Assembly (NCBI GenBank): GCA_017457005.1
Contig: JAFTII010000020.1
Location: forward strand, 117 to 64,116
Direction of reading: 5' to 3'
DNA: 64,000 nt
Source of the DNA: Alphaproteobacteria bacterium
GTDB lineage: Bacteria; Pseudomonadota; Alphaproteobacteria; RF32; CAG-239
The translations under genes and the position numbers were made by a program. The stretch's first letter is position 1; the number at the start of each line of letters is the position of its first letter. Of the stretch, positions 13,844 through 49,680 are shown in pieces. The notes under the pieces are model-generated. The model saw only the letters and a program-made list of their open reading frames with translations, had not been told where the DNA came from and made no database searches.

Positions 13844-13924
13844 AATATATAAAATTAGATGATTAATAATTTTTAATTGAATTTAAAATACACAAAAATT
13901 CATTTTTGTAAAGCATTTTCACAC

Positions 13925-13952
13925 TTGCAATTAAGAATAAACATCATATAAT
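13925..13952 (+). promoter_or_regulatory. promoter TTGCAA-N16-TATAAT
   Basis: Read directly. The extended -35 TTCACACTTGCAA is shared with the ssrA promoter. Confidence 0.4.
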
Positions 13953-13982: not shown

Positions 13983-14456
13983 ATGAGAAAAAGTATTCTA
14001 TATTTTTTATTATGTTTTTTGTTTTGCTACAGCACAAAAGCCGAAGAAAGAATTTATAATCCTGAAACTAAAGATATTGTAACAGAATGTACAGGAGAAA
14101 ATTACGCATTATCCAATAATAAAGCTGAGAATATTATTGCTAGTTGTACTACAATATCTAATTTAGCAAAAAACAACTTTAGTGATTATGAAAATCATAA
14201 ACAAATGCAAAACATTAATTTGTGCTTAAAAAATGAGATTAAAAACTATATGCGACAAATTTTTACTCATGAGTATTATCTTGAAGCTGAAAAACATTTA
14301 GAATTATCACTAAATAATATAGAAAATTTTTACAACAACATTTTTACTAACAATAAATTTGTATCAGAAGCAGGAAGCTTAGACTTGTTGAGAATTGATA
14401 CTGCCATAAACTCTTTTTTAATTAAGGCATTAAAATCAGTATTAGAAGAATGTTAA
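13983..14456 (+). CDS. secreted/periplasmic protein (157 aa), candidate immunity partner
   Basis: Sec-type signal peptide MRKSILYFLLCFLFCYSTKAEE. Convergent with the MuF/lysozyme-like gene across a 6-nt gap. Confidence 0.55.
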   Translation: MRKSILYFLLCFLFCYSTKAEERIYNPETKDIVTECTGENYALSNNKAENIIASCTTISNLAKNNFSDYENHKQMQNINLCLKNEIKNYMRQIFTHEYYLEAEKHLELSLNNIENFYNNIFTNNKFVSEAGSLDLLRIDTAINSFLIKALKSVLEEC

Positions 14457-14462
14457 ACCTAA

Positions 14463-15476
14463 TTAATTTAAACTATTAATTGCTTTTAAGCATTCTTTAG
14501 GATACCTGTTTAATATATTATTTTTATTTGCAATATCTAATTTTGATACATACAACATACGTTGTTGGTAAAGAGATGTTATTAAATCTTCATCAGATAT
14601 TTTACTAACATCACCTTTCCAAGCATTACGAACAATTGTGGATGCTTTTCCATGTTGTACTGCTACTGAATACAATACGTCTTTTATAACCGGATGACGC
14701 TTTTCTAAATTAAGCCCTTTAATATCACTTATTTTAGCCAACAAAGGTTTTAGTTTTTTCTCAACTATAAAATCTGTCTGTGATTGATTAAAGTTAGGAT
14801 TTTTAGAGTTTGATTTCCATATATTTTCAAATTCATCAGTTTTAAGTTTGGCGGCATTCTCCCCTCCTGCTTTTATTAATTGATTTGCAAAATTTGTATA
14901 TTGAGGTGTGTTTTCTAAGAAACTAATATAGTCTTTCATTGTTCCTTTTTTGGTTTCTATTTGATATTTTCCATAACTATATCCTCCTGTTTTATCATAA
15001 CCTATTGCTGAAGGATTTCCATTAGATTCAAATTCTTCGCTTAATGAACCTAATTTATATCTATAATGCTTATCCATATATCTCTCCAGAGAGAATTCCT
15101 CTGCCGTACAACGGCAATTATAATCTTCTCCGGGGTGTCCTCCGGATGGTGGCTCATCCCATGCAAAAATTTCTCCATCTCGTTGGGCATGTTCTTCCCT
15201 TACCAAGTCATCCCCTTCTGTACGCCAAATATAGTAATTTTGCGGATTATCTTTCGCTTCCTCTAACATAATTTCTTGCAAATAAGGATTTGGAGTATCC
15301 GGACAGTCAACATCTATAGTTCTAACTTTAGTATCTGCTACAAAATCATCATCACGACCACGCGGATCAATATAGTACCACCGACTTTCTCCTTTTTGAG
15401 GATTTAATCGTTCCAACGGCATTCTTCCTCGCATTTTCAGTTCTAATTCTTCTCTTAAGCTTAAATCTTTTTTCAT
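14463..15476 (-). CDS. phage Mu F (SPP1 gp7)-like domain fused to a lysozyme/chitosanase-like C-terminal domain
   Basis: MuF C-terminal signature YIWRTEGDDLVREEHAQRDGEIF...PGEDYNCRC. The C-terminal half (SEEFESNGNPSAIGYDKTGGYSYGKYQI..G.....FL) resembles, from memory, VgrG3-type peptidoglycan-hydrolase domains. Confidence 0.6.
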   Translation of the reverse strand: MKKDLSLREELELKMRGRMPLERLNPQKGESRWYYIDPRGRDDDFVADTKVRTIDVDCPDTPNPYLQEIMLEEAKDNPQNYYIWRTEGDDLVREEHAQRDGEIFAWDEPPSGGHPGEDYNCRCTAEEFSLERYMDKHYRYKLGSLSEEFESNGNPSAIGYDKTGGYSYGKYQIETKKGTMKDYISFLENTPQYTNFANQLIKAGGENAAKLKTDEFENIWKSNSKNPNFNQSQTDFIVEKKLKPLLAKISDIKGLNLEKRHPVIKDVLYSVAVQHGKASTIVRNAWKGDVSKISDEDLITSLYQQRMLYVSKLDIANKNNILNRYPKECLKAINSLN

Positions 15477-15566
15477 TAAAACCTCCTTAAATCGTATTTT
15501 ATTTACTCAATATATACGAAAAACGTATTTAAAGTCAATACCGGTAAATATATTTTCATTTCACAC

Positions 15567-15595
15567 TTGCAAAACTGCCTGATTGCAGTTATATT
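15567..15595 (+). promoter_or_regulatory. ssrA promoter TTGCAA-N17-TATATT
   Basis: Read directly, about 7 nt upstream of the inferred precursor start. Confidence 0.5.
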
Positions 15596-15601
15596 GTAAA
15601 A

Positions 15602-16027
15602 GTTAGAGTTATCTGACTATGACACTAGAGGCTCTATGAAATAGGATATTTGGACCCGGGGGCAGTACCCGGCACCTCCACCAGTGCGAAGTCGCACAGG
15701 CACTATTTAGTTTTTACTCGCTCAACTCACAAGTTCGTTTCGCTGTGATTGCATCTTGTAAACGCTAAGATATTATTTTAAGTTAGTAACTAATGACTTT
15801 ATGGGGGTGACACAGGATTGACAGGTATCAGTAAAGATAGGTATGTCGTGTTCGGTGAGATACCACCGTTATCGGTTCAAATTAAAATGAATGCTAACGA
15901 TAATAACGTAGCACCTGTTGCAATGGCTGCTTAATTGTAGTCGCAACAAACTTAAATTCTTTGAGCTTTGGTTAGCTTAAAGTGAGGCTGTAGGGACTTG
16001 CCTAGCAACAGGAAAGTCCCCCTTTTT
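15602..16027 (+). ncRNA. ssrA: two-piece (circularly permuted) tmRNA precursor
   Basis: The acceptor piece ends ...CCGGG-GGCAGTA-CCCGG-CACCTCC-A-CCA at 15683. The coding piece starts GGGGGTGA at 15803 and pairs with CACCTCC, including a G3-U70 wobble. Tag reading frame gct aac gat aat aac gta gca cct gtt gca atg gct gct taa = ANDNNVAPVAMAA. Terminal hairpin 15993-16020 plus T-run. Confidence 0.85.
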
Positions 16028-32944: not shown

Positions 32945-33421
32945 TTATACGATTATTTGCCATTTTCCGGTTTTGATAAGATAGGCAATACGTTGAGCTC
33001 GTTTGCCGGTTTGTTTGGCATAATTGCTGTTTAAACATTCCGCAGCAGCATGTTGATACATACATTGCGATAAATATCCCAGCATATTTTTGAACTTCAA
33101 AAGACCATTGATACCCAAATTAAAGGCCATATCTACCAGCGCATATTGACGTTCATCATCTAAAGCTTCAAAAAAAAGAATGCTCTGTTTGCATTCTTTA
33201 ACAATTCTTCTGATATCTCGTCTCAGCAAATAATTGGCGCCTTCTGTAGTTATACCGTGGTGCCAGTCCCCCAAAACTTTAGTTTCTTCCTCTGTAATCG
33301 GGTGGGCATCTAAATTATGCCCCACCCCTATAGTCTGTTTGCCTCTGGTACAATAATAGGGCTTCAAACGAAGCCCCTCATGAAAATGTAGTCTTTTGAC
33401 TGCGGTATTAATGTCTATCAT
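32945..33421 (-). CDS. phage lysozyme (GH24-type endolysin)
   Basis: HFHEGLRLKPYYCTRGKQTIGVGHNL matches the EG.rl..Y.d..G..TIG.GH catalytic block. Confidence 0.9.
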   Translation of the reverse strand: MIDINTAVKRLHFHEGLRLKPYYCTRGKQTIGVGHNLDAHPITEEETKVLGDWHHGITTEGANYLLRRDIRRIVKECKQSILFFEALDDERQYALVDMAFNLGINGLLKFKNMLGYLSQCMYQHAAAECLNSNYAKQTGKRAQRIAYLIKTGKWQIIV

Positions 33422-33660
33422 TTGTGTCTGTCCATAATCAGGTGATAAATATCTTTTACATCTTTGCAGGTTTCTGAACTTTGCGCTAACAAGGTATCCA
33501 GCTTGATTTCTATGGCTGATACCTTATACTCACATCCGGCAACTCGTTCTTCTAAGTTTATAACTCGCGGATTTAAGGTCAGTAAAAGTTGAATAAAACT
33601 GCATATTGAAAAGATAACTATCAATACCCAAGTAATGTTTTTGATTCTATCTATCATCAT
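33418..33660 (-). CDS. small single-TM phage protein, holin candidate
   Basis: 80 aa with TM helix WVLIVIFSICSFIQLLLTL. Its stop overlaps the endolysin start. Confidence 0.45.
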   Translation of the reverse strand: MMIDRIKNITWVLIVIFSICSFIQLLLTLNPRVINLEERVAGCEYKVSAIEIKLDTLLAQSSETCKDVKDIYHLIMDRHK

Positions 33661-33997
33661 TTTCCTCCATTACAGGTTTGGGAAATTGTGATTTAATGGC
33701 AGTTATGGTTTCTTGCCAATTATGAGTATTATTAATTTTATCCCAATAAATCATATCAAGTTGTTCGCTCAAGGGCGGATATGCTCGTTGGCGTTGCTCA
33801 ATATAACTTGGTGGATTTTGCGGAAGTACACGGTATTGACGGTATAAATATTCCGTTCCATCAACAGATGTTCGGATTGAAGGAACTTCTTCTACAATCT
33901 GATAATGATTATTAGTCGCAAACTGCCAATAAATATCATATTTTTCTGCCCCAAAAACATCTCCTAATTTGGGGGTAAATATAATTTCATCGCTCAT
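33647..33997 (-). CDS. phage hypothetical protein (116 aa)
   Basis: Translationally coupled within the tail/lysis string. Confidence 0.5.
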   Translation of the reverse strand: MSDEIIFTPKLGDVFGAEKYDIYWQFATNNHYQIVEEVPSIRTSVDGTEYLYRQYRVLPQNPPSYIEQRQRAYPPLSEQLDMIYWDKINNTHNWQETITAIKSQFPKPVMEENDDR

Positions 33998-33999
33998 GT

Positions 34000-35364
34000 T
34001 TATACTCCTTGTCCGTCAGCAACCCAATCAACACTACCGGCTCCGGCAGAAAAACCGGTTGTGGTTTTGTTGTTGCCGTTTATTAGTGTATAACCGGAAT
34101 TTGAGTATGGTTTAAGAAAAGTTACGGTTCCGCTTTGAGAATAACCTCCCTGACGCAACCGCTTACTATGATACAGCTCATACCATTGATTTCCGGATGT
34201 GCCTCGTTCAATGATATAATCTTGAATATTGGCATAATCATTATAATCAGCCGCCCTGAAAGTCATCTTAGAAGCAAAGCTATCTATCTTATCATTGCTG
34301 ACATGGGCTGATATAGGACATATACGTTTTCTGATATTCCAGTTATTATTTAAATATTCTTCTAAGGTGTTATTTGTTCTATTAAACCATATAGTATAAT
34401 TTGCCGGATTTTGCGGGCGATCTTTTTGATCAACATAAGCTGCATAATAATCGCTAAATGTTCCGGAATCCCCTATTACCGGATATACGTTTCTGGTTCC
34501 GCCCATGCTTTGTAAGGTTACATTATTAATTGTAAACTCGCAATTATTAAAACTACCGTCAGCATTTCTGCCATTTGCTATTAAACCTTTAACACCCGGC
34601 AAAGCAAAGACCATTGAGCCGATATAGCCAAATCCGTTAAATATATGTTCTACAGAAATGATAGTACCAGAAGATGAAGTTTTTATAACAGCTATCGGAA
34701 AAGAACCATTGCTCCACCTTAATACGCCTTGACTGTAAAAACTGACAATATTATCCTCTGTATTGTAGTTAACACCACTTGAAGGAAGCTCTGTATCAGA
34801 AAAAATCACATTTGTAGATACTGCCGTAAAACCTCCGTCTCCGGTAATAAACATAACTAATGTTGCTTCGGTCGTAATCGGACTGGTATAAATTCTGTCA
34901 GTGCTAACTATATATTCGGCAAATTTTAAATTATCTTCGGCATCTCTTCCGGAAGGAATATATAGCTTACTACCTGACTTCAAAATTATAGAGCCGTTAT
35001 TAAATTCTAACCTGATGTCTTGCGGTATTTCGGTTATGCAATTGGTAATATGAGTTTGATTAATCTTATCATTTGCATAGTGTTTGGATAATTCCGCATA
35101 ATCAGCCGATTGCTTGGCAGCCTCCGAACTCTGAATGGCTAAAGGGTTCATAACATCTTTAACCGTTTGTAAAATTACAGGTTTGGCAATGTTGTCGGTA
35201 TAATTCATTATATCAGGTTTACTGATATTGTTTACATAGTCATTGATTTCCTGCTTGCCTGATCGTATATGCTTTATTGCAATATCTAAATCCAATTGAA
35301 CTTCATCTTGCCAATATAGCTCTATTGTTGAACTGTCATCTATGTTTGTTGATATGATTTCCAT
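34000..35364 (-). CDS. putative tail fibre / receptor-binding protein (454 aa)
   Basis: Position downstream of the collar-domain fibre gene. Ser/Thr/Asn/Gly-rich, beta-rich composition. Confidence 0.5.
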   Translation of the reverse strand: MEIISTNIDDSSTIELYWQDEVQLDLDIAIKHIRSGKQEINDYVNNISKPDIMNYTDNIAKPVILQTVKDVMNPLAIQSSEAAKQSADYAELSKHYANDKINQTHITNCITEIPQDIRLEFNNGSIILKSGSKLYIPSGRDAEDNLKFAEYIVSTDRIYTSPITTEATLVMFITGDGGFTAVSTNVIFSDTELPSSGVNYNTEDNIVSFYSQGVLRWSNGSFPIAVIKTSSSGTIISVEHIFNGFGYIGSMVFALPGVKGLIANGRNADGSFNNCEFTINNVTLQSMGGTRNVYPVIGDSGTFSDYYAAYVDQKDRPQNPANYTIWFNRTNNTLEEYLNNNWNIRKRICPISAHVSNDKIDSFASKMTFRAADYNDYANIQDYIIERGTSGNQWYELYHSKRLRQGGYSQSGTVTFLKPYSNSGYTLINGNNKTTTGFSAGAGSVDWVADGQGV

Positions 35365-35368
35365 CTTA

Positions 35369-35725
35369 TTACCTCGTTACCTGCTCTGTTATTCTGAATA
35401 CGCCTATCTTATTTATATTTGTAGGAAAGATTGTGTTTATGGCGCCATCAGGCAAAACCAATTCAATATCTACTTTATAATCGCCTACCGGAATGTTGGT
35501 ATCTTGAGGAGTTAAAATAAAAACCATTTTACCGGTGTCAGTTTCTGCATTGAGTGCTGTTTTATCAATAAGCAAGTTATCTTCATAATCTCTGACCTGC
35601 ATACGCAGCGATGAGCCTTGCATATCAAAATCATGATGTGATTTTTTTATTTGAACAATTATATTAAAACTATCCCCTTGTCTGACTTCAATAAGATTTG
35701 AATGTGCAACTATTCTACCGCTCAT
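35369..35725 (-). CDS. phage structural protein, Ig-like (118 aa)
   Basis: VRQGDSFNIIV...GDYKVDIELV pattern, reminiscent of BppU-N/Ig-like phage domains. Weak call. Confidence 0.45.
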   Translation of the reverse strand: MSGRIVAHSNLIEVRQGDSFNIIVQIKKSHHDFDMQGSSLRMQVRDYEDNLLIDKTALNAETDTGKMVFILTPQDTNIPVGDYKVDIELVLPDGAINTIFPTNINKIGVFRITEQVTR

Positions 35726-35727
35726 AA

Positions 35728-36504
35728 TTAGCTCTCCAATTTGATTTTAATAAAATAATTAACTGCTTGGTTAATAGGAGTAACATGCGTACTTGCTCCA
35801 TATATGGGATTGGATAATGAGGCCTTAAAACCGGTTCCGTTGCAACTCTGATTGTGGCTATCGGAATTTTTACCCATAGTGGTTGTTGTCAGATCATAAA
35901 ATGCTCCGGTAACAGTTGAATTGTTTTCATATCTCATCGGAAGGAATGTACCTTTAATATCCGGTAATCCTTCTGCTTGAGTTGAATAAATATCAGAAGC
36001 CGAATTTCCGCCCAACCCTCTTAAAAATTTTCCGCGATAATCAGGAAGATTAAAAGTTGTTGTTCCGTCTCCGGCACCAAATTTGGTTCCTATCAAAGCA
36101 AATAATTCCGAATATGTTGTTCGGCTTACGGCTTGCCCGTTGCATAAGAACCAATTGCCATGGTTGGATGTTTGTACGGAGGCTTTAATATCTCCTAACT
36201 TTTCCGATGAATTGATGATATTCTTAATTGTTGATTGAAGAGAAGATACGGCATCATTTAATTGTTGCAAATTAGTGGCTTCCGTTTGTGCTGTTGCTTT
36301 AGCCAAATTTTTTAATTTAAATCCGGCAATGTTTATATCCCCTTTCATTGCAACTCTTCCATCACGTAAAAAAGTCTGACTCAAGCCATCGGCAAAGTTG
36401 TCGTCTTCTTCATCATGGTGATCCGTAACAATTTCTATATCATTTATTCTATCATCTTCCCAATTATGAATACGGGTAAAATTTCCACCACTATCAAATG
36501 GCAT
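35728..36504 (-). CDS. tail fibre protein with phage tail-collar domain
   Basis: WFLCNGQAVSRTTYSELFALIGTKFGAGDGTTTFNLPDYRGKFLRG. Start set at MPFDSGG, which has a perfect AGGAGA RBS. Confidence 0.8.
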   Translation of the reverse strand: MPFDSGGNFTRIHNWEDDRINDIEIVTDHHDEEDDNFADGLSQTFLRDGRVAMKGDINIAGFKLKNLAKATAQTEATNLQQLNDAVSSLQSTIKNIINSSEKLGDIKASVQTSNHGNWFLCNGQAVSRTTYSELFALIGTKFGAGDGTTTFNLPDYRGKFLRGLGGNSASDIYSTQAEGLPDIKGTFLPMRYENNSTVTGAFYDLTTTTMGKNSDSHNQSCNGTGFKASLSNPIYGASTHVTPINQAVNYFIKIKLES

Positions 36505-36527
36505 TTTATTTCTCCTATAAAAAATTT

Positions 36528-36755
36528 TTAATGACAAATATCCAATTCTTGCCGTAGTTTATCAATTCTCCCGATCCATTCCCAAGTATAAGGATAATCT
36601 TGATAATTAAGACGTTGTAATTCGTTGGCTACATTACTTCCGGCTATGGGATAGATCGGACAATAATTATAATTTTTCTGCGTACATGAGCTTAAGCAAA
36701 GCATCACGAGAAGCATTAGGACGAGAATGAATTTGCGATTTTTGTTGTGCAACAT
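36528..36755 (-). CDS. small lipoprotein (o-spanin-like or exclusion lipoprotein)
   Basis: Lipobox LCLSSC after a hydrophobic signal. Its start lies inside the upstream ORF in another frame. Confidence 0.45.
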   Translation of the reverse strand: MLHNKNRKFILVLMLLVMLCLSSCTQKNYNYCPIYPIAGSNVANELQRLNYQDYPYTWEWIGRIDKLRQELDICH

Positions 36756-36864
36756 GTTTTACTACCTCTGTTTGCTTGGCTATAATTTGAGTTTGAGAAT
36801 GCGAACGACCAAGCAAGTAACACAGAAGTAATATGAGTACCAAACCTACAATACGGATAATCAT
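36667..36864 (-). CDS. small N-terminal-TM protein (i-spanin-like)
   Basis: 65 aa with TM helix IVGLVLILLLCYLL, then a polar periplasmic-type tail. Overlaps the lipoprotein gene by 89 nt. Confidence 0.4.
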   Translation of the reverse strand: MIIRIVGLVLILLLCYLLGRSHSQTQIIAKQTEVVKHVAQQKSQIHSRPNASRDALLKLMYAEKL

Positions 36865-36998
36865 TATGGCGCTCCCAATAATAACAAAAAAGCCCTTGCC
36901 ACATACTCCGCAGCTTCGGGCCTGATTAGCGACACAACAGAAAGTACTGCTAAGGCGGTAATTATAACATAAAAACGATATTTGTTTGCCTTTTTCAT
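36864..36998 (-). CDS. 44-aa small membrane protein (not in the ORF track)
   Basis: Translated by hand: MKKANKYRFYVIITALAVLSVVSLIRPEAAEYVARAFLLLLGAP. Its TAA stop and the start codon of the next ORF share nt 36864 (ATAATG). Begins just after a terminator. Confidence 0.3.
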   Translation of the reverse strand: MKKANKYRFYVIITALAVLSVVSLIRPEAAEYVARAFLLLLGAP

Positions 36999-37007
36999 TA
37001 TTTTCTC

Positions 37008-37037
37008 AAAAAAAAAGCCGAGATTATGTCTCGGCTT
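37008..37037 (-). terminator. intrinsic terminator inside the phage cluster
   Basis: Stem agccgaga/tctcggct with a 9-nt T-run on the minus strand. Confidence 0.65.
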
Positions 37038-37056
37038 TGCGGTTAATGTAATGACA

Positions 37057-37440
37057 TTATAATCCGATCAGCATTTTACTGAAAACGGATACTAAAAATT
37101 TAACAATCAACATCCAAACAGTACCACCAAAAATAACACCCCATATCATTCCCCATCCGGCCGGAGTATTATTACGGCGTTGTTGAATATAGTCATATAA
37201 AAACCATATTCCTTGCTCCATAAGATATACGATAAATAATATCAATAATCCGAGAACCGTTTCATCGCCTTTAACAAACTGCGGGACTGCAATTGCCACG
37301 CGTAGAAGTGCAGTTAAAGTATTAGATACTTTCCAAGAGTTTTCTTTTTTAAATAATCGTTTCAGCAGATAAAGAATAATAACACGGATGATTCCGGTCA
37401 GCGCTAATGTTGCTATCGACATTAAGATTACAAATGTCAT
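37057..37440 (-). CDS. phage-encoded 4-TM membrane protein
   Basis: Start set at the ATG with an aaggaa RBS. Four hydrophobic helices. Confidence 0.55.
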   Translation of the reverse strand: MTFVILMSIATLALTGIIRVIILYLLKRLFKKENSWKVSNTLTALLRVAIAVPQFVKGDETVLGLLILFIVYLMEQGIWFLYDYIQQRRNNTPAGWGMIWGVIFGGTVWMLIVKFLVSVFSKMLIGL

Positions 37441-37511
37441 GGCATTTCCTTTCAAAAAGATGTTTATGATTGATACTAACCGCCATTTTGTTAATTGTCA
37501 AATTTATATAT

Positions 37512-38381
37512 CTATTTACAAGCTAATCCATAATTAACTTTCAGATAACCGCTGGAATCAATATAAACGGCATCCGGATTTATATAAATAACTTCTTGGG
37601 CCAATAAACCTATACGAGGTGTATTATCTCCTACGTAATTATATAAATATACCGGTAATCCGTTATATAATCTGCCGACTTCAGTGATATTTTGTTTTAA
37701 GTTTTCATCTGAAAACATACTGACAATACTTCCCAGCGCATTCCATCCGGCTTTTGTTTGAGCCTGATTGTTATATTGGCGATTATCTGATATACGTTTA
37801 TCTGACTGCGAGGCTATATCATATTTATCCATAGCAACATCATAACCGCTTTTACTATTTTGCAATAAACTCAAAATCTCATTTACGGGCAATATTTGTG
37901 CTGAATTTTGAAAATTGCCGGCAGCAATTTGATTGTTGAGGCTGTTGGTATAAGTATTTTGACCGGCAGAAATACTATCATAAGCTGCTTGTTCGTATGC
38001 ACCTGCCTGTTGCTGATCAAGGCTGTTCATAGCATTCTGATAAGCCTCACTCCCCACACTCAAACCCTGATTTTGCAACTTGGTTTCTAATTGACGACGC
38101 ATAGCTGCAAATTGCGGATTTATTTTGTTAACAGCATTTCGGTAAGTTGCGTTTTCTGCTCTTTGAGCATCTTCTTGTGAACCGGACACCGAATATATAT
38201 ACCCCGGACGATTGTTTAGCCGGGAGCTGATTTGATTACCTAAATTTGCCATATTTTTATATGTATTATCTGCTACGCCGGTATCATAACTATTGAGATA
38301 ATTCAATATCTCATTTTCAGCTCCATAGCGAGATGTATTTGCTCCGCCGGCTCCCAATACTTTTCCTATACTTTTTGCCAT
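37512..38381 (-). CDS. phage protein with C-terminal intramolecular-chaperone (peptidase S74) domain
   Basis: FSDENLKQNITEVG....GLPVYLYNY.....RIGLLAQEV....PDAV. Q/N-rich N-terminal part. Perfect AAGGAG RBS at the chosen start. Confidence 0.7.
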   Translation of the reverse strand: MAKSIGKVLGAGGANTSRYGAENEILNYLNSYDTGVADNTYKNMANLGNQISSRLNNRPGYIYSVSGSQEDAQRAENATYRNAVNKINPQFAAMRRQLETKLQNQGLSVGSEAYQNAMNSLDQQQAGAYEQAAYDSISAGQNTYTNSLNNQIAAGNFQNSAQILPVNEILSLLQNSKSGYDVAMDKYDIASQSDKRISDNRQYNNQAQTKAGWNALGSIVSMFSDENLKQNITEVGRLYNGLPVYLYNYVGDNTPRIGLLAQEVIYINPDAVYIDSSGYLKVNYGLACK

Positions 38382-38382
38382 A

Positions 38383-38826
38383 TTAATCTCCTTGATAAAA
38401 TTCAAATTGTTTTTTCTGTACGCCCATAATAATCTTATCGTCTCCGTTATCGCCATAATGAGAAAGAATCCCCTCTACAGTAAAGCCTAATTTTTGAGCC
38501 AATTTTATACATTTAAAATTGTTGCAATCAGTCATTATGGTTATCCTTTTACATGCAAAATAATCATAAGCGACCGAAAACATAAATTTTAGTATTCTTT
38601 TACTACACCAGTGCTTGTCTATAGTATAAAGTGTCCACCAGACATCTCTTCCTTGACGAATATTGTGGTAAATCAATCCTCCGATTAGTCGGTTTTGATA
38701 CACAAACCCGATTGTATAATGTTTATCCAACCATTCGGTTCCGATGTTCAGCCCCGAACAAATCCAATCGGTTATTTTCTCTTTGTCATCACTAATAACA
38801 CTACATAATGCTGCATCCTTGTTCAT
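38383..38826 (-). CDS. GNAT-family N-acetyltransferase
   Basis: Acetyl-CoA-binding-like block and C-terminal KLAQKLGFTVEGILSHY. About 147 aa. Confidence 0.65.
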   Translation of the reverse strand: MNKDAALCSVISDDKEKITDWICSGLNIGTEWLDKHYTIGFVYQNRLIGGLIYHNIRQGRDVWWTLYTIDKHWCSKRILKFMFSVAYDYFACKRITIMTDCNNFKCIKLAQKLGFTVEGILSHYGDNGDDKIIMGVQKKQFEFYQGD

Positions 38827-40351
38827 AGCGAACTCCCGTATCAAACCATTCTATTAAATTACCGCGGGTTTTGGTTTTGAAAACCACACTCGCTTTAAAA
38901 CCGGTGGCAGAATTTGCAATCCATTGACTGCGTATTTTTCCTTTTAGGGTTGCCCATTTGCTTCCGACAGGGTTCTTTAAGCAACTCCAATAAGTTGAGT
39001 TCCATTTATTCAAATCACTGTGCCCTATATTTTCCATATAAGGACACTTTTGTGATGAGAAATCCATATTGGTATATACTATTAACGCATATTGTGCAGA
39101 TGATTTTGTGCGCGGATTGATAAGCTGAATTCGTTTTAAATTCGGAGTACCAAAGTCCGAATAGGCTTGTTCAACCGTTCCGCAAATATGTACTCCATTA
39201 TCAGAATAGCCTTCATCAAACAAAAATACAGCATTGTCCGAACCAAAAAAGATCCGGTTACCAAATGTTCCCCAACAAAATGACCTGATATCGGTAAAAC
39301 GACACCAAGCACCGCTATTTACATTTACAACATGTTGCTCAAATTGTTGTGCTACCGGAACATTGAATATTGCATATCCGCCACGACTATAAATAATACT
39401 TTGCCAACCTGTTTTATCCTTTGATTGTTGCGTTCTTTCCAAAACCAATCCTCTAATTTTATCTGAGAAAGAAACTTGTGAAGAATTGGCTTTATCTAAT
39501 GACAATGCCTTGGACATCGGAATATAGCCGTCTTCAGATATGATGACAATGTCTCCCTGGTATTGCATAGCACAGCGATAACCTATCGGGCGGCTCATTT
39601 GAAATACCCCGCGCAAGCTCCAATCTGAAGCATCACCGGGATCATTTCCCCCATATACGGCAATCTCTCCTTCTGAGGTTATAAATACGGTTAAATCATC
39701 AACTCCTTGTCCGGCATCTTGTGTCCAAGAAGCAATTGATAACAGCTCCCCGCCTTTGCGAAAAATTGAAGACAGATCAAATTTAACCAATGTTCCCCGT
39801 ACTTCTCCGGCTCCTTGCGAATACCAAGCGTTTAAGCTCCCTTTTTCTACAAAAAACAAACGTTGTTTGCTTACGGTTACATTTATAAGCTTAAATGGCT
39901 GGAGATTAATGCCTTCAAACATGGCTTCTTGCCAATTGTCGCCATCTTCCGAACTATAAAATGTTTGCGGGGCATCATAACCGTTTACTAATATCAGATA
40001 GTCCTTAAATTGTACATATTGCCAATAATCATGGCTAAAGTCTGTTGCAATTTCTTTTACGTCTTCTTTATTAGTGATATCCCATATCTTACCATTACCA
40101 AAAGCAAAGAACTTATTATTTCCCGGTTTGCAATATTCAACCAAGGTACTTATTCGGCAACCTAAATTTACATAAGGAACATATCCTTTACGTAATACCA
40201 CCTTATTGGCAATCGGTAAATAATTGTCCATGACTATAGCATCAGTTATTGCCATGGTATCTAAACTATCTCTGACATTCAATCCTCCAATCGGAGCCGG
40301 CAAGATAAAATTAGCTGAAGTATTATTTCGGTTAATCTGCTTTGGTGACAT
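38801..40351 (-). CDS. large phage structural protein (tail/nozzle-like, beta-propeller-like)
   Basis: Start at MSPKQINRNN, which has a perfect AAGGAG RBS. Repetitive beta-rich sequence. Positioned between the capsid-proximal genes and the fibres. Confidence 0.55.
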   Translation of the reverse strand: MSPKQINRNNTSANFILPAPIGGLNVRDSLDTMAITDAIVMDNYLPIANKVVLRKGYVPYVNLGCRISTLVEYCKPGNNKFFAFGNGKIWDITNKEDVKEIATDFSHDYWQYVQFKDYLILVNGYDAPQTFYSSEDGDNWQEAMFEGINLQPFKLINVTVSKQRLFFVEKGSLNAWYSQGAGEVRGTLVKFDLSSIFRKGGELLSIASWTQDAGQGVDDLTVFITSEGEIAVYGGNDPGDASDWSLRGVFQMSRPIGYRCAMQYQGDIVIISEDGYIPMSKALSLDKANSSQVSFSDKIRGLVLERTQQSKDKTGWQSIIYSRGGYAIFNVPVAQQFEQHVVNVNSGAWCRFTDIRSFCWGTFGNRIFFGSDNAVFLFDEGYSDNGVHICGTVEQAYSDFGTPNLKRIQLINPRTKSSAQYALIVYTNMDFSSQKCPYMENIGHSDLNKWNSTYWSCLKNPVGSKWATLKGKIRSQWIANSATGFKASVVFKTKTRGNLIEWFDTGVRYEQGCSIM

Positions 40352-41051
40352 TAATACATACTCCTTCCGTAAGAGGATTATATAAATTACCGCATAAAGA
40401 GATATCTTTGGATGACAAGCCGGAAGCAAAACGGTTGCGAACTTCACGTTGATATTCGTTAAATTCTTCTTCATACGGCATTCCGTTACGGCGATACCAC
40501 CGCCAAATAATCCCTTTTTTGACCAAAAACTCATCAAATATCGGAATATCGGTATTTTGTGTTATGGCAGATTTTTCAATACCGCAATATTTTTTACTGC
40601 CATCATAGGCGATTACAGATGATCTGTATTGAAAAACTATTTTAAGTTCTCCGATTGGAACGGTTAAAAACTTTAGCATTCCGTTTTGAATTTTAAACTT
40701 CATATTCAATGACGGAACATTAAAATATTTTTCTTTCATCCATTGCTCCGGAGTAATGGCGCCTACAACTTTTTCTGCTCTATCTTTAATAAATACCGTA
40801 TTGTTTATCAGACAATAAAAATCCGGACAATAATCTGCCAGCAAATAATTACTCTGCCCTTTGGTCGTCCGTAAACAACCTTCTTTAGTCAGTTCTTGCC
40901 AATCTCCATAGCGTAAAAGGCTATCTAAAGTATCTTGAGCAACACTCAAAAAAACAGCTTCTTGTTGGCTGGATGAATTAAATAAATCCGATGGTCGTTG
41001 TGTGGCTACCAAGCTTGCAGCCTCTTGGCATATTTCTAAAATATTTTTCAT
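40332..41051 (-). CDS. phage structural protein (239 aa)
   Basis: Coupled to its neighbours, in the adaptor/tail position downstream of the capsid gene. Confidence 0.5.
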   Translation of the reverse strand: MKNILEICQEAASLVATQRPSDLFNSSSQQEAVFLSVAQDTLDSLLRYGDWQELTKEGCLRTTKGQSNYLLADYCPDFYCLINNTVFIKDRAEKVVGAITPEQWMKEKYFNVPSLNMKFKIQNGMLKFLTVPIGELKIVFQYRSSVIAYDGSKKYCGIEKSAITQNTDIPIFDEFLVKKGIIWRWYRRNGMPYEEEFNEYQREVRNRFASGLSSKDISLCGNLYNPLTEGVCINVTKAD

Positions 41052-41052
41052 A

Positions 41053-41607
41053 TTATATTCCTTTATTTTTCAGAACTTGCCGAAGACGTTTATTATCTTC
41101 TTCCAAATAACGAATTTTATTTTGATATTTTTGTTCTTGAAAATGCCAGTCGGCAATTTGTTTATTTGACTTGGAATTTGCAATAAACTTACGAGCCAAA
41201 TCTCTTTCTTTGCTTATTCCTAGCCCGTTTGCTTTATCATCATCAAGTTCTGATAATGTTTCTACGGTAAATATTCCACGGCATTTCAGACTTTCTACTT
41301 CTGATAAAGTCAAAAATGCAAACTGCTCTAAAGGAGTTCCGACTGCTGTTTGCTTTTTAGACAATAAATATCTGGCATATTCTTGAGGAAAGCGTTTTTT
41401 CTTGTCTTCGGTTGCCGGTTGATCAAAAATTTCGGAATTGTTATCTTTGATTCTGATTTCACAGAAGCATACATTTTTAAATATCGGAAAACCTTGTTCA
41501 TCTACGCTATCTGTTTTGATACTGCGATCATAAAATCTGGCATTTACACCATCTTCAGACACATTACTGCGAGCAAGATTTTCAAAAGTTGAAAAATCTA
41601 TATCCAT
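41053..41607 (-). CDS. phage protein (184 aa)
   Basis: Immediately downstream of the major capsid gene. Confidence 0.5.
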   Translation of the reverse strand: MDIDFSTFENLARSNVSEDGVNARFYDRSIKTDSVDEQGFPIFKNVCFCEIRIKDNNSEIFDQPATEDKKKRFPQEYARYLLSKKQTAVGTPLEQFAFLTLSEVESLKCRGIFTVETLSELDDDKANGLGISKERDLARKFIANSKSNKQIADWHFQEQKYQNKIRYLEEDNKRLRQVLKNKGI

Positions 41608-41673
41608 ATCTTTGTCCTTCGGTTAAGATTAAAAAATTAGGGAGGATTGCCTCCTCCCTAATAATCAGCTGTT

Positions 41674-42648
41674 TTATTCCCCGTTTTTATTAATCAATAC
41701 CCCTTGTAGAGCCGCATTACTCATAGTCATATTACCTGCCCAGCCGATAATTTTATATAAAGCATCCTGATTGACAGACATTCGCTCGCCACCGATTACT
41801 TTCATATTTCGCTCTTTATGATTACGCAAATAAATATAATCGGTATTAAGAAAATAAATTTTATCTTCAGGACAGTGACCGCCTTGTCCGCCATCACAAA
41901 TCAAATCTGCACCCTTAAATTTAATGCTGCTAAATCCGGCTTCTGCCATTTTGTTATCAGAATAACGTTGTTGCGGAAGAAGGGTTGATTCATACAAACC
42001 GTATAATTCGTTACCGCAAACAATTAAATCCGGCTTATCTGTCCCACGACATAATGACATATACATTTTATCCATAGCGGAATGAATATTATCAGAATTT
42101 AAGCCTTCGGTAATTTGAGTTGATTTATTGCGCCAAAATTCATTACCAACCGTAGAGCGGTCTATACCGCCGACAACACCGGTTGACGGACTATCTGCTA
42201 CCAACAATGCAAGCCCGCCAATTTCCTTACCTGCCGAACCGGTACCATCACCATATACGGCGGCAGACATTTTATTGCTCATTGTTTTGATTGCATTTTC
42301 AACACGTTTTTCAAATAAATCCAAAACTTGTTCTTTGCCGGAGTTTTTTAAGATATCTTCTCCGGATACCGCTACGGGAACGGCACATAGTTTGAGACTG
42401 TATTCTGCCGCCGTAAACAATTGTTTGGGAGTATAATCAATAGTATCATAACCGGAATACCAAGTCATATCTCCTTCGCCATATTCAAGCTCTTCAATAA
42501 TTTTAGAGCCACCTGAAATCGGACGAATTTTACCTTTGCTTTTGAGTCTGCTTAAAAGTGCATTGTTAGTACTGATATTATCGGCCAACTTGCCGGCACG
42601 ACTAGTCAGAGTGGTTGTTAAGACATCATTATAATCAATATTTGCCAT
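41674..42648 (-). CDS. major capsid protein
   Basis: 324 aa, directly after the scaffold-like gene, with a strong RBS. The composition and N-terminus are typical of podoviral HK97-fold capsid proteins. The call rests mainly on position. Confidence 0.65.
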   Translation of the reverse strand: MANIDYNDVLTTTLTSRAGKLADNISTNNALLSRLKSKGKIRPISGGSKIIEELEYGEGDMTWYSGYDTIDYTPKQLFTAAEYSLKLCAVPVAVSGEDILKNSGKEQVLDLFEKRVENAIKTMSNKMSAAVYGDGTGSAGKEIGGLALLVADSPSTGVVGGIDRSTVGNEFWRNKSTQITEGLNSDNIHSAMDKMYMSLCRGTDKPDLIVCGNELYGLYESTLLPQQRYSDNKMAEAGFSSIKFKGADLICDGGQGGHCPEDKIYFLNTDYIYLRNHKERNMKVIGGERMSVNQDALYKIIGWAGNMTMSNAALQGVLINKNGE

Positions 42649-42675
42649 AATTAATTTCCTTTATTAAATTTATTG

Positions 42676-43341
42676 TTAATCATCATATTCAGCCAGTTTT
42701 AATTCCAAAACTTCACGTGTGCTGAGTTTTGATAAATCTTTCGCTAAACGATTTTTGCCTTTGGGTGCAAATGCTGCTTCTTTAGCTTTTTGAATTTCTG
42801 CAATACGTTCTGCCTCATGATTACACATATTATATTTATCAATCAGCTCAGATATTTTTTCCTCTAAAGCATCTAACTTAGATGAAAGAGGCGAAAAATC
42901 TGTGCTTGCGTCTAATGATACTCCATAAATTTCTGCTAAAGATTGCAGAGCTTCTTTAGGATTACAGTCTAAAGCATCATCTATGCGGGCCATTGCCTCA
43001 ACCCAATCTTGTGCTTTATTAATCCCTAAGCGATGCAAACGTTCGGCACGAGATGTAAAAACATCATCAATCCACCGGCGATGACTAAGCTCATTATTAA
43101 GGCGAGAAAACCCACGTTCGGTTTCACACTCTCTTTCACAAAGATATTTGCGCATAGCCGCAGGCAAAGATTTAAACATTTCAACATATTCTTTTTTGTA
43201 AGAACGAGGTGCAATCAGATACTCGTCTTTGCTATTGTCATCTTTTTTACTACATGTTTCTTGAATGTTTTTTTCTTTTTCTGCTAAAGCTATGGCTTTA
43301 TCATATTGTTTTTCAAGTTCTTTTCTTAAATCATTAGTCAT
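42676..43341 (-). CDS. scaffolding protein
   Basis: Highly charged, predicted coiled-coil protein between the portal region and the capsid gene. Start set at MTNDLRKELEKQ. Confidence 0.6.
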   Translation of the reverse strand: MTNDLRKELEKQYDKAIALAEKEKNIQETCSKKDDNSKDEYLIAPRSYKKEYVEMFKSLPAAMRKYLCERECETERGFSRLNNELSHRRWIDDVFTSRAERLHRLGINKAQDWVEAMARIDDALDCNPKEALQSLAEIYGVSLDASTDFSPLSSKLDALEEKISELIDKYNMCNHEAERIAEIQKAKEAAFAPKGKNRLAKDLSKLSTREVLELKLAEYDD

Positions 43342-43561
43342 TCCAGATACTCCTTTTATAATTGTGAATGAAGTCAGAAAACAATTCTGCTTTCTGAACT
43401 TTTTCATTATGCTGTCGCCTAGACCTGAGATAGGCTTCAGAATAATCTTGAGAAAGAGACAAATCATTGTCTCGTAAATATTTATCAAGCTGATAGTTTG
43501 AAGACACTATCCGCCCGTCAGGCAGTCGCAGACTGTCCGTCCATTCTTTTGAAAAATACAT
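43334..43561 (-). CDS. phage hypothetical protein (75 aa)
   Basis: Overlaps the scaffold start by 8 nt. Confidence 0.45.
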   Translation of the reverse strand: MYFSKEWTDSLRLPDGRIVSSNYQLDKYLRDNDLSLSQDYSEAYLRSRRQHNEKVQKAELFSDFIHNYKRSIWND

Positions 43562-43585
43562 TGTGCTTTACTCGTTATTAAATAT

Positions 43586-43611
43586 AAAAAAATCCCGAGA
43601 ATTTCTCGGGA
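43586..43611 (-). terminator. intrinsic terminator closing the moron cassette
   Basis: Stem tcccgaga/tctcggga with a 7-nt T-run on the minus strand. Confidence 0.65.
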
Positions 43612-43632
43612 GGTTGTGATTAAGTTCAACTA

Positions 43633-44193
43633 TCATTGTTTAGTTTTATGATTTTCTTGCCACATAATTTTACGAAGTATTTGCAGTTCTTGATATGAAT
43701 ATTCATACAAACAATTTTGTTTATCATATTCTTGGTTATATTGTTGACACAGTCTCAATACGTCATGCTTCCAATCTTGAAAATTATATTTCCAATCCGA
43801 ATCTTTTTCTAATTTTTGGTAATAACCTGATATCTCATTTTGAAACCGTTTAACCATATCTGCCAAACAAATTGCATTATTACCGCAATGATCTTTAATA
43901 TCATAATATTCATCAGTATCATAGACATATTCATCTTCTTGTATTATCGGAATTATGCAATACATATTGAGGCAAAATAAAGTAATACTCCATAGAATTA
44001 TACTCAGAAATTTATTAATGTAACAACATAATACTGAGGTTAGTGTTAGCAAAGATAGCATAATAATACTATTTTTAGAAATACTTTCAGGAAAAATTGT
44101 TAACATATAAAAAAACAATATACAAAAAGCTACAAATGCTACAAACCACAATATAAACAAACTTTTTTGATGTGTGTTATTGAGAAATTTCAT
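43633..44193 (-). CDS. 3-TM protein with Cys-containing soluble C-terminal domain (moron B)
   Basis: Start at the ATG with a GGAGA RBS. Three helices, then HCGNNAICLADMV...CQQYNQEYDKQNC. Confidence 0.55.
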   Translation of the reverse strand: MKFLNNTHQKSLFILWFVAFVAFCILFFYMLTIFPESISKNSIIMLSLLTLTSVLCCYINKFLSIILWSITLFCLNMYCIIPIIQEDEYVYDTDEYYDIKDHCGNNAICLADMVKRFQNEISGYYQKLEKDSDWKYNFQDWKHDVLRLCQQYNQEYDKQNCLYEYSYQELQILRKIMWQENHKTKQ

Positions 44194-44734
44194 TATTCTT
44201 CTCCTCAAATAACAACCATGTGTAATAACATTGTTTTTTACGGATATTCTTTAATTTATGATTTTGCCTTACAATTCCATAGTTCCTTTTATCACAGTAT
44301 TCATATCCTATTTTTCCATATAGTGATTTAGTAGTGTTTAATTTACTTATAGCATGATCAAAACAAAGTTCTTTATCTTCGTTATTATAAAGGCACTGCA
44401 ATAAATCAGGTTCATATTTAGATAATTTACTTTGTAAAAACCCAGCAGGATGATATGATACAGGCAACAATGTCTGTATTACCAATAAAATTAAAAAAAT
44501 AGGAATTATTATCATCATTTGTTTGCGCGGTATATATAATTCCAGCAAATATATGATAATAAAACTTGAAAATAAAGCTATTATAAACAAGGGCAATTTA
44601 TCATTAATCACAGCTAAATCATATCTCATTTGCAAAAAGTCAGACAATAATAACAATGCAAATGAAAATGCTATTGTGATTGACCACGCTATCAATAACA
44701 AAATATTTTTTAAGAGGCCAAATATTATTTTCAT
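44177..44734 (-). CDS. multi-TM protein with Cys-containing soluble C-terminal domain (moron A)
   Basis: Three to four helices, then CLYNNEDKELCFDH...YCDK...KKQC. Confidence 0.55.
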   Translation of the reverse strand: MKIIFGLLKNILLLIAWSITIAFSFALLLLSDFLQMRYDLAVINDKLPLFIIALFSSFIIIYLLELYIPRKQMMIIIPIFLILLVIQTLLPVSYHPAGFLQSKLSKYEPDLLQCLYNNEDKELCFDHAISKLNTTKSLYGKIGYEYCDKRNYGIVRQNHKLKNIRKKQCYYTWLLFEEKNNEISQ

Positions 44735-44781
44735 ATTAAATCCTTTTTAACAATTATATTTTTTTTATTTAATTTTTCAAT

Positions 44782-45111
44782 CTATTTAATATAACGTGAG
44801 TAAAATTGCGAAATCATGTCTTCACAGTCTTCATCAGGATTTTTAAAACCGACATATATTCCTCTCGCATCTGCCTTTAAGTCCTGAATACCATCTTGTA
44901 TAATATCCGAATAATGTTTATAGTTATCATTATTGATCGTATTATCTTGGTTAAGCTTATCAGCTGTATCTAAAGCCTGATTATAAGTATTACGAACCTG
45001 TGTAACAACTGATGACTTAACGGCATTATCATAAACTTGACGCAACCATTCTCGTCTCTTTTGTTGTTCTTCTAAATCTTCTCCCCACATATTAGTATAT
45101 CTGCTACTCAT
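44782..45111 (-). CDS. phage hypothetical protein (109 aa)
   Basis: Intact ORF in the portal-scaffold gap. Confidence 0.5.
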   Translation of the reverse strand: MSSRYTNMWGEDLEEQQKRREWLRQVYDNAVKSSVVTQVRNTYNQALDTADKLNQDNTINNDNYKHYSDIIQDGIQDLKADARGIYVGFKNPDEDCEDMISQFYSRYIK

Positions 45112-45128
45112 CTGTTTTGTCCTTTGTA

Positions 45129-45335
45129 TTATATAAATTCAACCATTATTTGTTTGTATGCTTCATCATTACCGGATTTGCTTTTGTTCTTATCACTTAA
45201 AAGCGCTAAAACCTTAGCCTTACCTAAAGAAGCAGAAATTGCCGCCGTAGGAGATTCATTACGTACGGCAATGGTACGAGCTTCTTCCAACTCATCTAAG
45301 ATATCTTCATAACTAAGCTTCTTCTTTGAAACCAT
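45129..45335 (-). CDS. phage hypothetical protein (68 aa)
   Basis: Start moved to the ATG (MVSKKKL), which overlaps the upstream TAA stop. Confidence 0.45.
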   Translation of the reverse strand: MVSKKKLSYEDILDELEEARTIAVRNESPTAAISASLGKAKVLALLSDKNKSKSGNDEAYKQIMVEFI

Positions 45336-45493
45336 TAGCAAAACCCTTTGACTAATCCGGTAGATATATTGGTGTTTATATCGTTCTTTCTAGGCGGAGT
45401 TGGTTGCTTATCGTGAATTACAACCGGATTTCGGTTATATTTTTTACGCTCATCTGCGAGTTGCTGAATTTTTAATCCGGCCTGAAACTTCAT
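45335..45493 (-). CDS. 52-aa ORF (not in the ORF track)
   Basis: Translated by hand: MKFQAGLKIQQLADERKKYNRNPVVIHDKQPTPPRKNDINTNISTGLVKGFC. Starts 1 nt after the portal stop. Confidence 0.3.
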   Translation of the reverse strand: MKFQAGLKIQQLADERKKYNRNPVVIHDKQPTPPRKNDINTNISTGLVKGFC

Positions 45494-48964: not shown

Positions 48965-48977
48965 ATTTGTTCTCCAT

Positions 48978-49010
48978 AAAAAAAATTCTGAAGATTGATG
49001 TCTTCAGAAT
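48978..49010 (-). terminator. intrinsic terminator immediately upstream of terL
   Basis: Perfect 10-bp stem attctgaaga/tcttcagaat with a 7-nt T-run on the minus strand that ends 13 nt before the terL ATG. Confidence 0.65.
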
Positions 49011-49083
49011 TTTATATACGTTTTCCATAATACGTTTTTTGTATCACTATTGGTCCCGCTTGTCAATACCTGTGGATAAGTTT

Positions 49084-49515: not shown

Positions 49516-49565
49516 TATTATATCCTTTAAACTAAAAATTAATAAGTCAGGCACTATTTATATAT

Positions 49566-49613: not shown

Positions 49614-49680
49614 TCTTTACAAAATTAAGTTTATAGGATACCATTTTCGTATATTAAAAGTTTTTATAAGGAGATTATAT

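Follow-up and report, generated by a model that had tools for sequence, protein, structure and literature searches.

A candidate mini-MuF toxin-immunity pair beside ssrA in an alphaproteobacterium, with an operator-like palindrome common to its toxin promoter and a resident phage-like particle cluster

The subject of this analysis is a pair of convergent genes in a 64-kb stretch of DNA (the window) from the 1.19-Mb assembly of a gut alphaproteobacterium (38 contigs, 88% complete). One gene, here termed the toxin gene, encodes a 337-residue protein in which a shortened phage MuF sequence is joined to a VgrG3C-type peptidoglycan hydrolase domain; the other, termed the immunity gene, encodes a 157-residue protein with a Sec signal peptide. 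The pair is probably a polymorphic antibacterial toxin-immunity cassette that is expressed, under repressor control, together with a phage-like particle and delivered by its capsid to the periplasm of neighbouring cells. The immunity gene would be constitutively on from its own promoter, and its product would wait in the periplasm after export through Sec, where its disulfide-stabilised four-helix bundle is predicted to block the hydrolase. The toxin gene would be silenced by the S24 repressor of a particle cluster elsewhere in the window and induced with the head, tail and lysis genes. The toxin itself, a leaderless effector made of a mini-MuF module and a swappable warhead, would be carried into the procapsid by that module. 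After lysis, the particle would eject it through the envelope of a neighbouring cell, whose peptidoglycan it would degrade unless a matching periplasmic immunity protein were present. The parts of the two genes are as follows.

Positions 14463-15476, minus strand: toxin gene, 337 residues; signal peptide absent; an AAGGAGG Shine-Dalgarno sequence 5 nt 5' of the ATG.
Positions 15087-15476, minus strand: mini-MuF module, residues 1-130; a lineage-specific segment of ~45 residues, then the MuF/SPP1 gp7 C-terminal core.
Positions 14466-15071, minus strand: VgrG3C-like (GH46/chitosanase-fold) peptidoglycan hydrolase domain, residues 136-337; putative catalytic Glu150 and Asp161.
Positions 13983-14456, plus strand: immunity gene, 157 residues; Sec signal peptide at residues 1-~20, linker, four-helix bundle.

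Both open reading frames (ORFs), convergent and parted by 6 nt (14457-14462) between their stop codons, had already been called in an earlier reading made from the sequence alone, and the coordinates were reproduced exactly. The toxin gene is the sole MuF-VgrG3C gene in the 1.19-Mb assembly. It sits between orf165/folA and ssrA, 17 kb from the particle cluster, and the G+C content at 14-15 kb is 26.5%, as against ~35% elsewhere.

The C-terminal domain of the toxin is matched by Pfam PF21277 (T6SS_VgrG3-like_C) over residues 142-310, with an E-value of 5e-28 and 98.8 bits against a cut-off of 27. At E up to 1 the toxin matches four Pfam families in all, none of them C-terminal of PF21277. When the protein was compared with PDB sequences, the only significant matches were the Vibrio cholerae VgrG3C structures 4NOO and 4NSO (E 3e-8); SEEFES...YDKTGGYSYGKYQI of the toxin aligns to SEKYES...GDYGGASYGCYQM of these structures, and Glu150 and Asp161 align with the acidic pair (YES / GDYGG) of 4NOO. 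An AlphaFold2 model built from 103 homologues (mean predicted local distance difference test score 89) has as its best PDB fold matches 4NOO_A and 4NSO_A, at target-normalised TM-scores of 0.76 and 0.78, and GH46 chitosanases and pesticin come next. Conservation is 76 of 98 aligned sequences for Glu150 and 97 of 103 for Asp161. The two residues, which we take to be the counterparts of the VgrG3 catalytic residues, agree in position with the alignment to VgrG3C and GH46. The VgrG3-type chitosanase fold had been suggested in the sequence-only reading; Pfam, PDB sequences and fold now all agree on it, and the hydrolase-like fold comes with an acidic pair aligned to that of VgrG3C.

The partner protein begins with an n-region (MRK), a hydrophobic core and a TKA/EE cleavage-type site, read by eye as a signal peptide, and lacks a lipobox. 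Its AlphaFold2 model consists of a helix at residues 3-20 (the signal), a disordered linker and four long helices, in keeping with the clear Sec signal peptide noted from the letters alone. Cys55 and Cys81 are invariant when the protein is aligned with the equivalent neighbours at other loci, and they therefore likely form a periplasmic disulfide. Zero matches were obtained in Pfam, PHROG and NCBIfam, no PDB sequence matched better than E 0.03, and a fold search of the PDB gave none at E<=0.001, with no chain of 4NOO or 4NSO among the 50 best matches listed. A word-seeded search returned only three relatives among 5.8 billion proteins, and a profile of the 157-residue family finds members beside 12 of 13 distinct VgrG3C-type genes, so the neighbour is not a housekeeping protein. 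Independent members found by the profile lie beside a 207-residue stand-alone VgrG3C gene, a 368-residue VgrG3C gene and another in L039, and the family also occurs in tandem arrays beside GH108-type toxins. A TsiV3/TsaB-like identity for the partner was rejected, as support from sequence and fold is absent. Likewise, an LprI/DUF1311-like identity, prompted by a presumed resemblance to LprI (secreted, helical, with paired cysteines), was rejected because PF07007 went unmatched in all 12 family members at E up to 5.

The combination of a leaderless, periplasm-acting enzyme with an exported inhibitor is hard to explain other than by delivery between cells, and in this sense the genetics of the pair alone argue for intercellular transfer.

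The N-terminal module is made up of the lineage-specific segment of ~45 residues (G..P.RR.NP..GQS.WYY.DPR) and, at residues ~46-128, a MuF/SPP1 gp7 core that ends in PGEDYNCRC. Pfam PF04233 (Phage_Mu_F) matches residues 72-125 (E 1.6e-13, 51.8 bits against a cut-off of 29.6), covering only profile positions 56-111 of 112, and NCBIfam TIGR01641 (SPP1 gp7) scores 48.9 bits against a cut-off of 39.65. In cultured phages the module is matched only over residues ~46-128, by proteins annotated as head-morphogenesis. In Sinorhizobium phage HMSP1-Susan the matching stretch is the last ~80 residues of a 272-residue MuF protein, encoded right after the gene for a portal-sized 'putative head protein'; the ~185-residue N-terminal part of canonical MuF is absent from the toxin. 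Since the match is confined to these last ~80 residues, the carrier is a MuF stub behind a new segment of ~45 residues. The MuF-domain carrier of the sequence-only reading is upheld in that both models exceed their curated cut-offs, but it has to be narrowed to the C-terminal ~80 residues of MuF. Across a whole library, a MuF motif near the N-terminus is common in proteins of ~200-400 residues (E<=0.001 yields 4366 cluster representatives and E<=1e-10 yields 814, with canonical MuF proteins counted in). Within the stub, His96, Cys121 and Cys123 (window ~15108-15191) are invariant across full-length relatives and, with Glu117 and Asp118, could form a candidate metal site.

Related loci come from uncultured Alphaproteobacteria of gut and rumen, and the set compared here comprises 72 loci from a species-representative genome collection together with loci from relatives. 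The N-terminal module is found at 87-98% identity on proteins without PF21277, and the VgrG3C domain is also found behind other N-termini. At least 11 C-terminal clusters occur on the same module, and the other C-termini carried by related strains each have a different neighbour. The warheads above the Pfam cut-off are VgrG3C, GH108 (with PG_binding_3) and Colicin_D; weak Pfam matches add GH24 and SLT, and a YkuD-like motif and a glycine-rich, membrane-toxin-like C-terminus were recognised by eye. In the gut lineage most C-termini are wall hydrolases.

The partners are linked to the warheads by type. An ORF for a signal-peptide or membrane protein lies within -30 to +130 nt of 51 of the 62 distinct toxin ORFs, mostly in convergent orientation. 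The commonest warhead type, C0 (GH24-like), is paired with I0, the secreted 'FVNPxFN' family, in 20 cases and with I2 in 4, and C1 of the Rhodobacteraceae is paired with its own family, I1, in 10. The glycine-rich member has a multi-transmembrane protein as its neighbour, and beside the Colicin_D member a signal-peptide neighbour was not found. An initial single-linkage clustering had joined three VgrG3C-type immunity proteins to the 'FVNPxFN' family; it was discarded, similarity between signal peptides being blamed by eye, and was replaced by the profile search of the 157-residue family described above.

Closer relatives show how the locus changes. A second strain has an identical intact layout, with an immunity protein 94% identical. 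A further strain (the array strain), which keeps the synteny dut-thyA-folA-orf165, carries two immunity genes of different families with short toxin 3' remnants between them; the toxin of the sister species G034 is split beside an intact immunity gene, and in G014 the slot holds an unrelated 116-residue gene. The swapping of C-termini, the type-matched partners and the immunity-only arrays with toxin remnants are hallmarks of polymorphic toxin loci. Together with the hydrolase fold, the swapping and the type-linked neighbours support the periplasmic toxin-immunity pair that the sequence-only reading had proposed.

Several groups of relatives depart from this architecture. A second, larger set of toxins (L103-L110, in G004, G020, G017, G002, G034, G012 and G019) has only the first ~65 residues of the module (G..P.RR.NP..GQS.WYY.DPR...IDV.S...PNP) and lacks the MuF motif; by eye its C-termini are GH24-like, GH108-like or glycine-rich, each with a secreted or membrane neighbour. 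Four Rhodobacteraceae contigs of ~4-6 kb (L049, L057, L058 and L061; the only coverage given, that of L049, is ~1967x) encode a 286-residue protein with the MuF motif at residues 30-79 and a 209-residue C-terminus, then a co-directional protein of ~165 residues with a hydrophobic start and, as the next gene, one that reads as AlkB-like. These contigs may be small multicopy replicons with the same kind of cassette. On a 58.7-kb metagenome contig (L085), a 498-residue homologue has a long proline-rich linker between mini-MuF and VgrG3C; its partner is convergent and 155 residues long, and the surrounding island holds resolvase, HipA, restriction-modification system, Fic and WYL genes.

The proposed tie between the cassette and a particle comes from the promoters and from a resident cluster of phage genes, for which the following features are needed.

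Positions 15509-15538, minus strand: toxin promoter-like site, TTGACT-18-TATATT, 10/12 matches.
Positions 15514-15528: perfect palindrome ATACGTTTTTCGTAT, which fills the spacer of the toxin promoter and touches its -10 box.
Positions 13925-13952, plus strand: immunity promoter-like site, TTGCAA-16-TATAAT, 10/12 matches; palindrome absent.
Positions 32945-50804, minus strand: podovirus-like particle cluster of 18 kb, integrase-less; proposed delivery vehicle.
Positions 32945-33421: GH24 lysozyme of the cluster, the element's own lysozyme.
Positions 49030-49044: operator-like palindrome before TerL.
Positions 49566-49580, 49600-49614 and 49638-49652: operator-like palindromes in the divergent region between the gene for a 156-residue protein and the repressor gene.
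Positions 49609-50424, plus strand: gene for a repressor with helix-turn-helix and S24-peptidase domains (CI/LexA-type), the proposed regulator of the toxin promoter.
Positions 50430-50444 and 50476-50490: operator-like palindromes after the repressor gene.

The two promoter-like sites of the pair are the two best in the region. Between the -35 and -10 boxes of the toxin promoter lies the palindrome ATACGAAAAACGTAT, the only perfect copy of ATACG-N5-CGTAT in the 1.19-Mb genome. When one mismatch or fewer was allowed, 10 distinct sites were found in the window, six of them within 1.5 kb around the repressor gene. Of the four exact ATAC-N7-GTAT sites in the window, three belong to the regulatory region of the element and the fourth to the toxin promoter; the composite TTGAC-N5-ATAC-N7-GTAT has no second exact match in the genome. 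The SOS box of Alphaproteobacteria is a direct repeat and is unlike this palindrome, which makes the S24 repressor of the element the obvious candidate for the protein that binds it. The true start of this repressor is probably near 49681, judging by its homologues.

The same arrangement recurs in relatives. Elements of G014, G005, G034, G024 and G032 have the same operator layout, and the toxin promoters of G034, G024, G025 and G032 have the palindrome in the same place, despite other loci and other warheads. The promoters of three VgrG3C toxins with an unrelated N-terminus (G010, G021 and G029) also carry it. In total, exact ATAC-N7-GTAT is present in 8/53 distinct toxin upstream regions as against a background of 0.6%, and all eight belong to the subclade with portal identity >=68%. 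The pair had been placed outside the prophage-like cluster by the sequence-only reading, which is true physically but probably not functionally, given the operator-like palindrome common to both. A further promoter with a palindrome (GTACGATATTCGTAT), at 17717-17896 of contig C16 of the genome, is homologous to that before the GH108-type toxin in G034; only a 31-residue stub of a second toxin follows it, and this stub is a deleted second cassette.

The particle cluster runs from the GH24 lysozyme through tail fibres, capsid, scaffold, portal, a GroES-like protein, TerL and the 156-residue protein to the S24 repressor and a 99-residue protein, and integrase and replication genes are absent from 32945-50804. 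The late operon of a homologous element contains a toxin-immunity cassette in five metagenome-assembled genomes (L021, L025, L028, L043 and L052), placed after the capsid gene, the TerL gene or the GroES-like gene; in all five, the toxin gene runs in the direction of the late genes and the immunity gene runs against it. A convergent layout would be used because the immunity gene is always on and the toxin gene on only with the late genes.

The element appears to be inherited by its hosts. Of 37 genomes of the genus, 32 have one copy of the portal gene, and in eight further species the element is collinear and integrase-less, with housekeeping genes directly flanking it at differing sites. Portal identity tracks RelA/SpoT identity (Spearman 0.90, n=29), and this co-divergence is the only support for vertical inheritance: an argument from conserved flanks was rejected, since the flanks differ between species except in the nearest one. 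Delivery by a type VI secretion system (T6SS) was rejected as well, because the sheath gene TssC (PF05943) is absent in 37 of 37 genomes of the genus; it was detected in six other genera and in the control.

On this evidence it is possible, though put forward only tentatively, that the integrase-less podovirus-like cluster serves, at least partly, as a machine for delivering toxins by capsid, in which a CI-type repressor directly controls unlinked mini-MuF toxins and kin are spared by Sec-exported immunity proteins.

A number of points weigh against capsid delivery of a repressor-controlled toxin. Toxicity, inhibition, repressor binding, packaging and delivery are all predictions from sequence and models, and the catalytic role of Glu150 and Asp161 is putative, resting on the alignment to VgrG3C and GH46. 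The toxin keeps only the C-terminal ~80 residues of MuF, whose sufficiency for capsid targeting is likewise predicted. Toxins lacking the MuF motif occur, as do VgrG3C toxins with an unrelated N-terminus, and G002 and G004 have MuF-less toxins (those with the first ~65 residues of the module) and no detectable portal; the particle is therefore not the sole route for all relatives. The window's own element is without a toxin gene, and most cassettes lie outside elements. Finally, no match to the palindrome was found in the distant species, where a crude shared-word search (G017 and G013) brought out no clear operator of their own.

Of the alternatives, the one that fares best, although it is unlikely, is that the toxin is a virion-associated entry lysin, a head protein ejected so as to open the recipient wall for DNA delivery, and that its partner is a factor for self-protection or superinfection exclusion, keeping damage or entry down in cells where the system is already present. 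Large phage structural proteins commonly have the VgrG3C-like fold, as do proteins annotated 'VgrG-like protein/endolysin', the PHROG families 'head morphogenesis' and 'minor head protein and DNA pilot' span the junction between the MuF and lysozyme domains, and the C-termini of the gut lineage are mostly wall hydrolases; the operator link and the in-element cassettes fit an entry lysin equally well. However, the same N-terminal module also bears a Colicin_D tRNase and the glycine-rich, membrane-toxin-like domain with its multi-transmembrane neighbour. The gene is absent from the window's element and from most others, and where it is present its position varies, so it is not a core structural gene. 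Arrays of immunity genes alone with decayed toxins are, moreover, typical of interbacterial toxin loci. Known virion-associated peptidoglycan hydrolases and pilot proteins do resemble the toxin in that a lysozyme-type domain is joined to a head-internal or structural protein, but the protein described here is small, polymorphic and immunity-paired and is not a fixed part of the element.

It is distinctly unlikely that the toxin is an effector of another export route, for which a remodelled VirB-like type IV secretion system (T4SS) would be the candidate, with the MuF motif as a leftover and the operator coupling expression to stress. In the X-Tfe/X-Tfi pairs of the Xanthomonadales T4SS, a leaderless wall-degrading effector with a C-terminal XVIPCD is matched by a lipoprotein immunity protein in the periplasm, and the present pair follows the same logic of leaderless wall hydrolase and periplasmic inhibitor. 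The toxins without the MuF motif, and the genomes G002 and G004 that carry toxins while the portal is absent, also suit such a route. Yet here the conserved part is N-terminal and phage-derived and the C-termini are variable, whereas T4SS signals (XVIPCD, BID, charged tails) are C-terminal. No further Pfam family was found in the toxin at E up to 1, and no XVIPCD-type C-terminal domain was among the matches, the presence of an XVIPCD model in the Pfam copy being unconfirmed. The partner, having no lipobox, is not a lipoprotein; cassettes are embedded and co-oriented in phage late operons, and the palindrome is common specifically to the repressor region of the element.

An accessory endolysin, made with the late genes and reaching the wall through a holin lesion while a periplasmic inhibitor tunes the timing of lysis, is improbable. 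The absence of a leader, the lysozyme fold and the probable co-regulation with lysis and structural genes would all suit an endolysin; against this, the element has its own GH24 lysozyme (32945-33421), an endolysin could do without the MuF motif and without polymorphic warheads (the Colicin_D tRNase, for example), lysis would be opposed if the producer's own endolysin met a constitutive inhibitor in the periplasm, and the neighbours of the gene (orf165, folA and ssrA) are not a lysis cassette with a holin. It is very improbable that the two genes are what is left, in decay and without present function, of a former prophage: the orphan location, the split or deleted toxins of sister genomes and the 31-residue stub behind a homologous promoter on C16 would fit, but neither frame is broken, the pair is whole in a second strain as well, and there is no damage to the promoter, the Shine-Dalgarno sequence, the palindrome or the putative catalytic residues.

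Read as a toxin-immunity cassette, the pair is best classed as a variant of the MuF polymorphic toxins; what it adds to them is a specific, conserved link in regulation to a phage-like particle cluster inherited by the host. The existence of MuF toxins was predicted in 2012 (Zhang et al., PMC3482391), and a survey followed in 2017 (Jamet et al., PMC5576092). In the published accounts full-length MuF is fused to warheads that are nucleases, peptidases, ADP-ribosyltransferases or alarmone synthetases, and the genes lie in head modules of prophages with immunity genes adjacent (PMC3482391, PMC5576092, PMC11699363). The members studied are Apk2 and Bxa; in the 2024 study of Bxa the biological role of MuF toxins is given as unknown and capsid targeting as a hypothesis only, so that capsid incorporation is unproven for the published MuF toxins too (PMC11699363). 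The present family shares with them the N-terminal MuF sequence, the variable C-terminal toxin domains, the adjacent immunity gene and, in five relatives, a location in the head module of a phage-like element; capsid delivery is hypothesised for both. It differs in that only the last ~80 residues of MuF are kept, with a new 45-residue segment, as against a MuF part of 322 residues in Bxa, and in that its warheads are mostly periplasm-acting wall hydrolases, unlike the nucleases, ADP-ribosyltransferases and alarmone synthetases described for MuF toxins. Immunity is Sec-exported here and its gene mostly convergent, an unusual orientation, and the gene of this window is chromosomal, with its own palindrome-bearing promoter, and lies outside any prophage head module next to portal and terminase. 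The text of Jamet et al. (PMC5576092) is without the words 'peptidoglycan', 'lysozyme', 'signal peptide', 'orphan' and 'truncated', and no published description of a mini-MuF variant was found.

Comparison with VgrG3C and its immunity protein TsiV3 (TsaB) of V. cholerae (4NOO, 4NSO; PF21277) shows the same hydrolase family, fold and motif (SE.[FY]ES...D..GG.SYG.YQ), and in both a dedicated immunity protein neutralises the enzyme in the periplasm, which for the present pair is a prediction. In contrast to VgrG3, however, the toxin has no VgrG spike and its genus no T6SS sheath gene, and the partner is a predicted four-helix bundle without a PDB fold match at E<=0.001. The particle cluster resembles the gene transfer agents of the RcGTA type in being a host-inherited, integrase-less cluster with functionally linked genes elsewhere in the chromosome under common control. 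Unlike them, it is podovirus-like, unrelated in sequence and under a CI/S24 repressor, and the unlinked gene encodes a toxin, not a structural or maturation factor.

The reduction of the carrier to ~130 residues narrows the possible capsid-targeting signal, and the palindrome common to the toxin promoter and the repressor region offers a simple, falsifiable regulatory link between weapon and vehicle. The partners add new families of immunity proteins against lysozyme-type effectors. It is also of note that several such cassettes are kept by gut alphaproteobacterial genomes that are very small (1.2-1.7 Mb across the genus). Should the cluster indeed act as a delivery machine, it would give the 'MuF phage-capsid secretion system' predicted in 2012 its first concrete, testable example, and would itself be a domesticated phage kept for warfare with its DNA-packaging head retained, unlike the headless tailocins.

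Two further observations concern the particle cluster. At 43633-45111, between the portal and scaffold genes and so in the usual place of MuF genes, there is an extra insert of ~1.5 kb with a G+C content of 26%, which is shared only with the elements of G014 and G034; it holds a 109-residue ORF and two paralogous proteins with several predicted membrane helices and a cysteine-rich tail. At 48965-49083, just before the start of TerL and downstream of the gene for the 156-residue protein, a strong hairpin and T-run (TTCTGAAGACATCAATCTTCAGAATTTTTTTT, minus strand) may act as a terminator or antitermination control point of the late operon.

The slot that holds the pair is bounded by the transfer-messenger RNA (tmRNA) gene and by two repeats.

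Positions 15563-16025, plus strand: ssrA, two-piece alphaproteobacterial tmRNA (ARAGORN and Rfam); fixed right border of the variable slot.
Positions 13917-13930, plus strand: left 14-nt direct repeat TTTCACACTTGCAA, exact copy.
Positions 15559-15572, plus strand: right 14-nt direct repeat TTTCACACTTGCAA, exact; overlaps the 5' end of the Rfam alpha_tmRNA match.

A two-piece tmRNA is called by ARAGORN at 15591-16025(+), and Rfam has an alpha_tmRNA match at 15563-16023 (196 bits); both put ssrA next to the pair, as had been said from the sequence alone. When the region was searched as DNA against a phage collection, the tmRNA region was the sole match. The further suggestion of a classical island at ssrA was rejected: the pair lies 5' of the gene, not at a 3' att site, and neither an integrase nor a duplicated ssrA 3' end is present at the slot. 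What stands of it is that the slot is variable. The orf165 gene was considered as a third component and dropped, since an iterative search recovered it in three genomes and solely at this locus. The two copies of the repeat bracket the two-gene cassette, and in the array strain (L128 5249, 5934, 7708) the repeat motif recurs, with ~60 nt of promoter and leader, 5' of each immunity gene.

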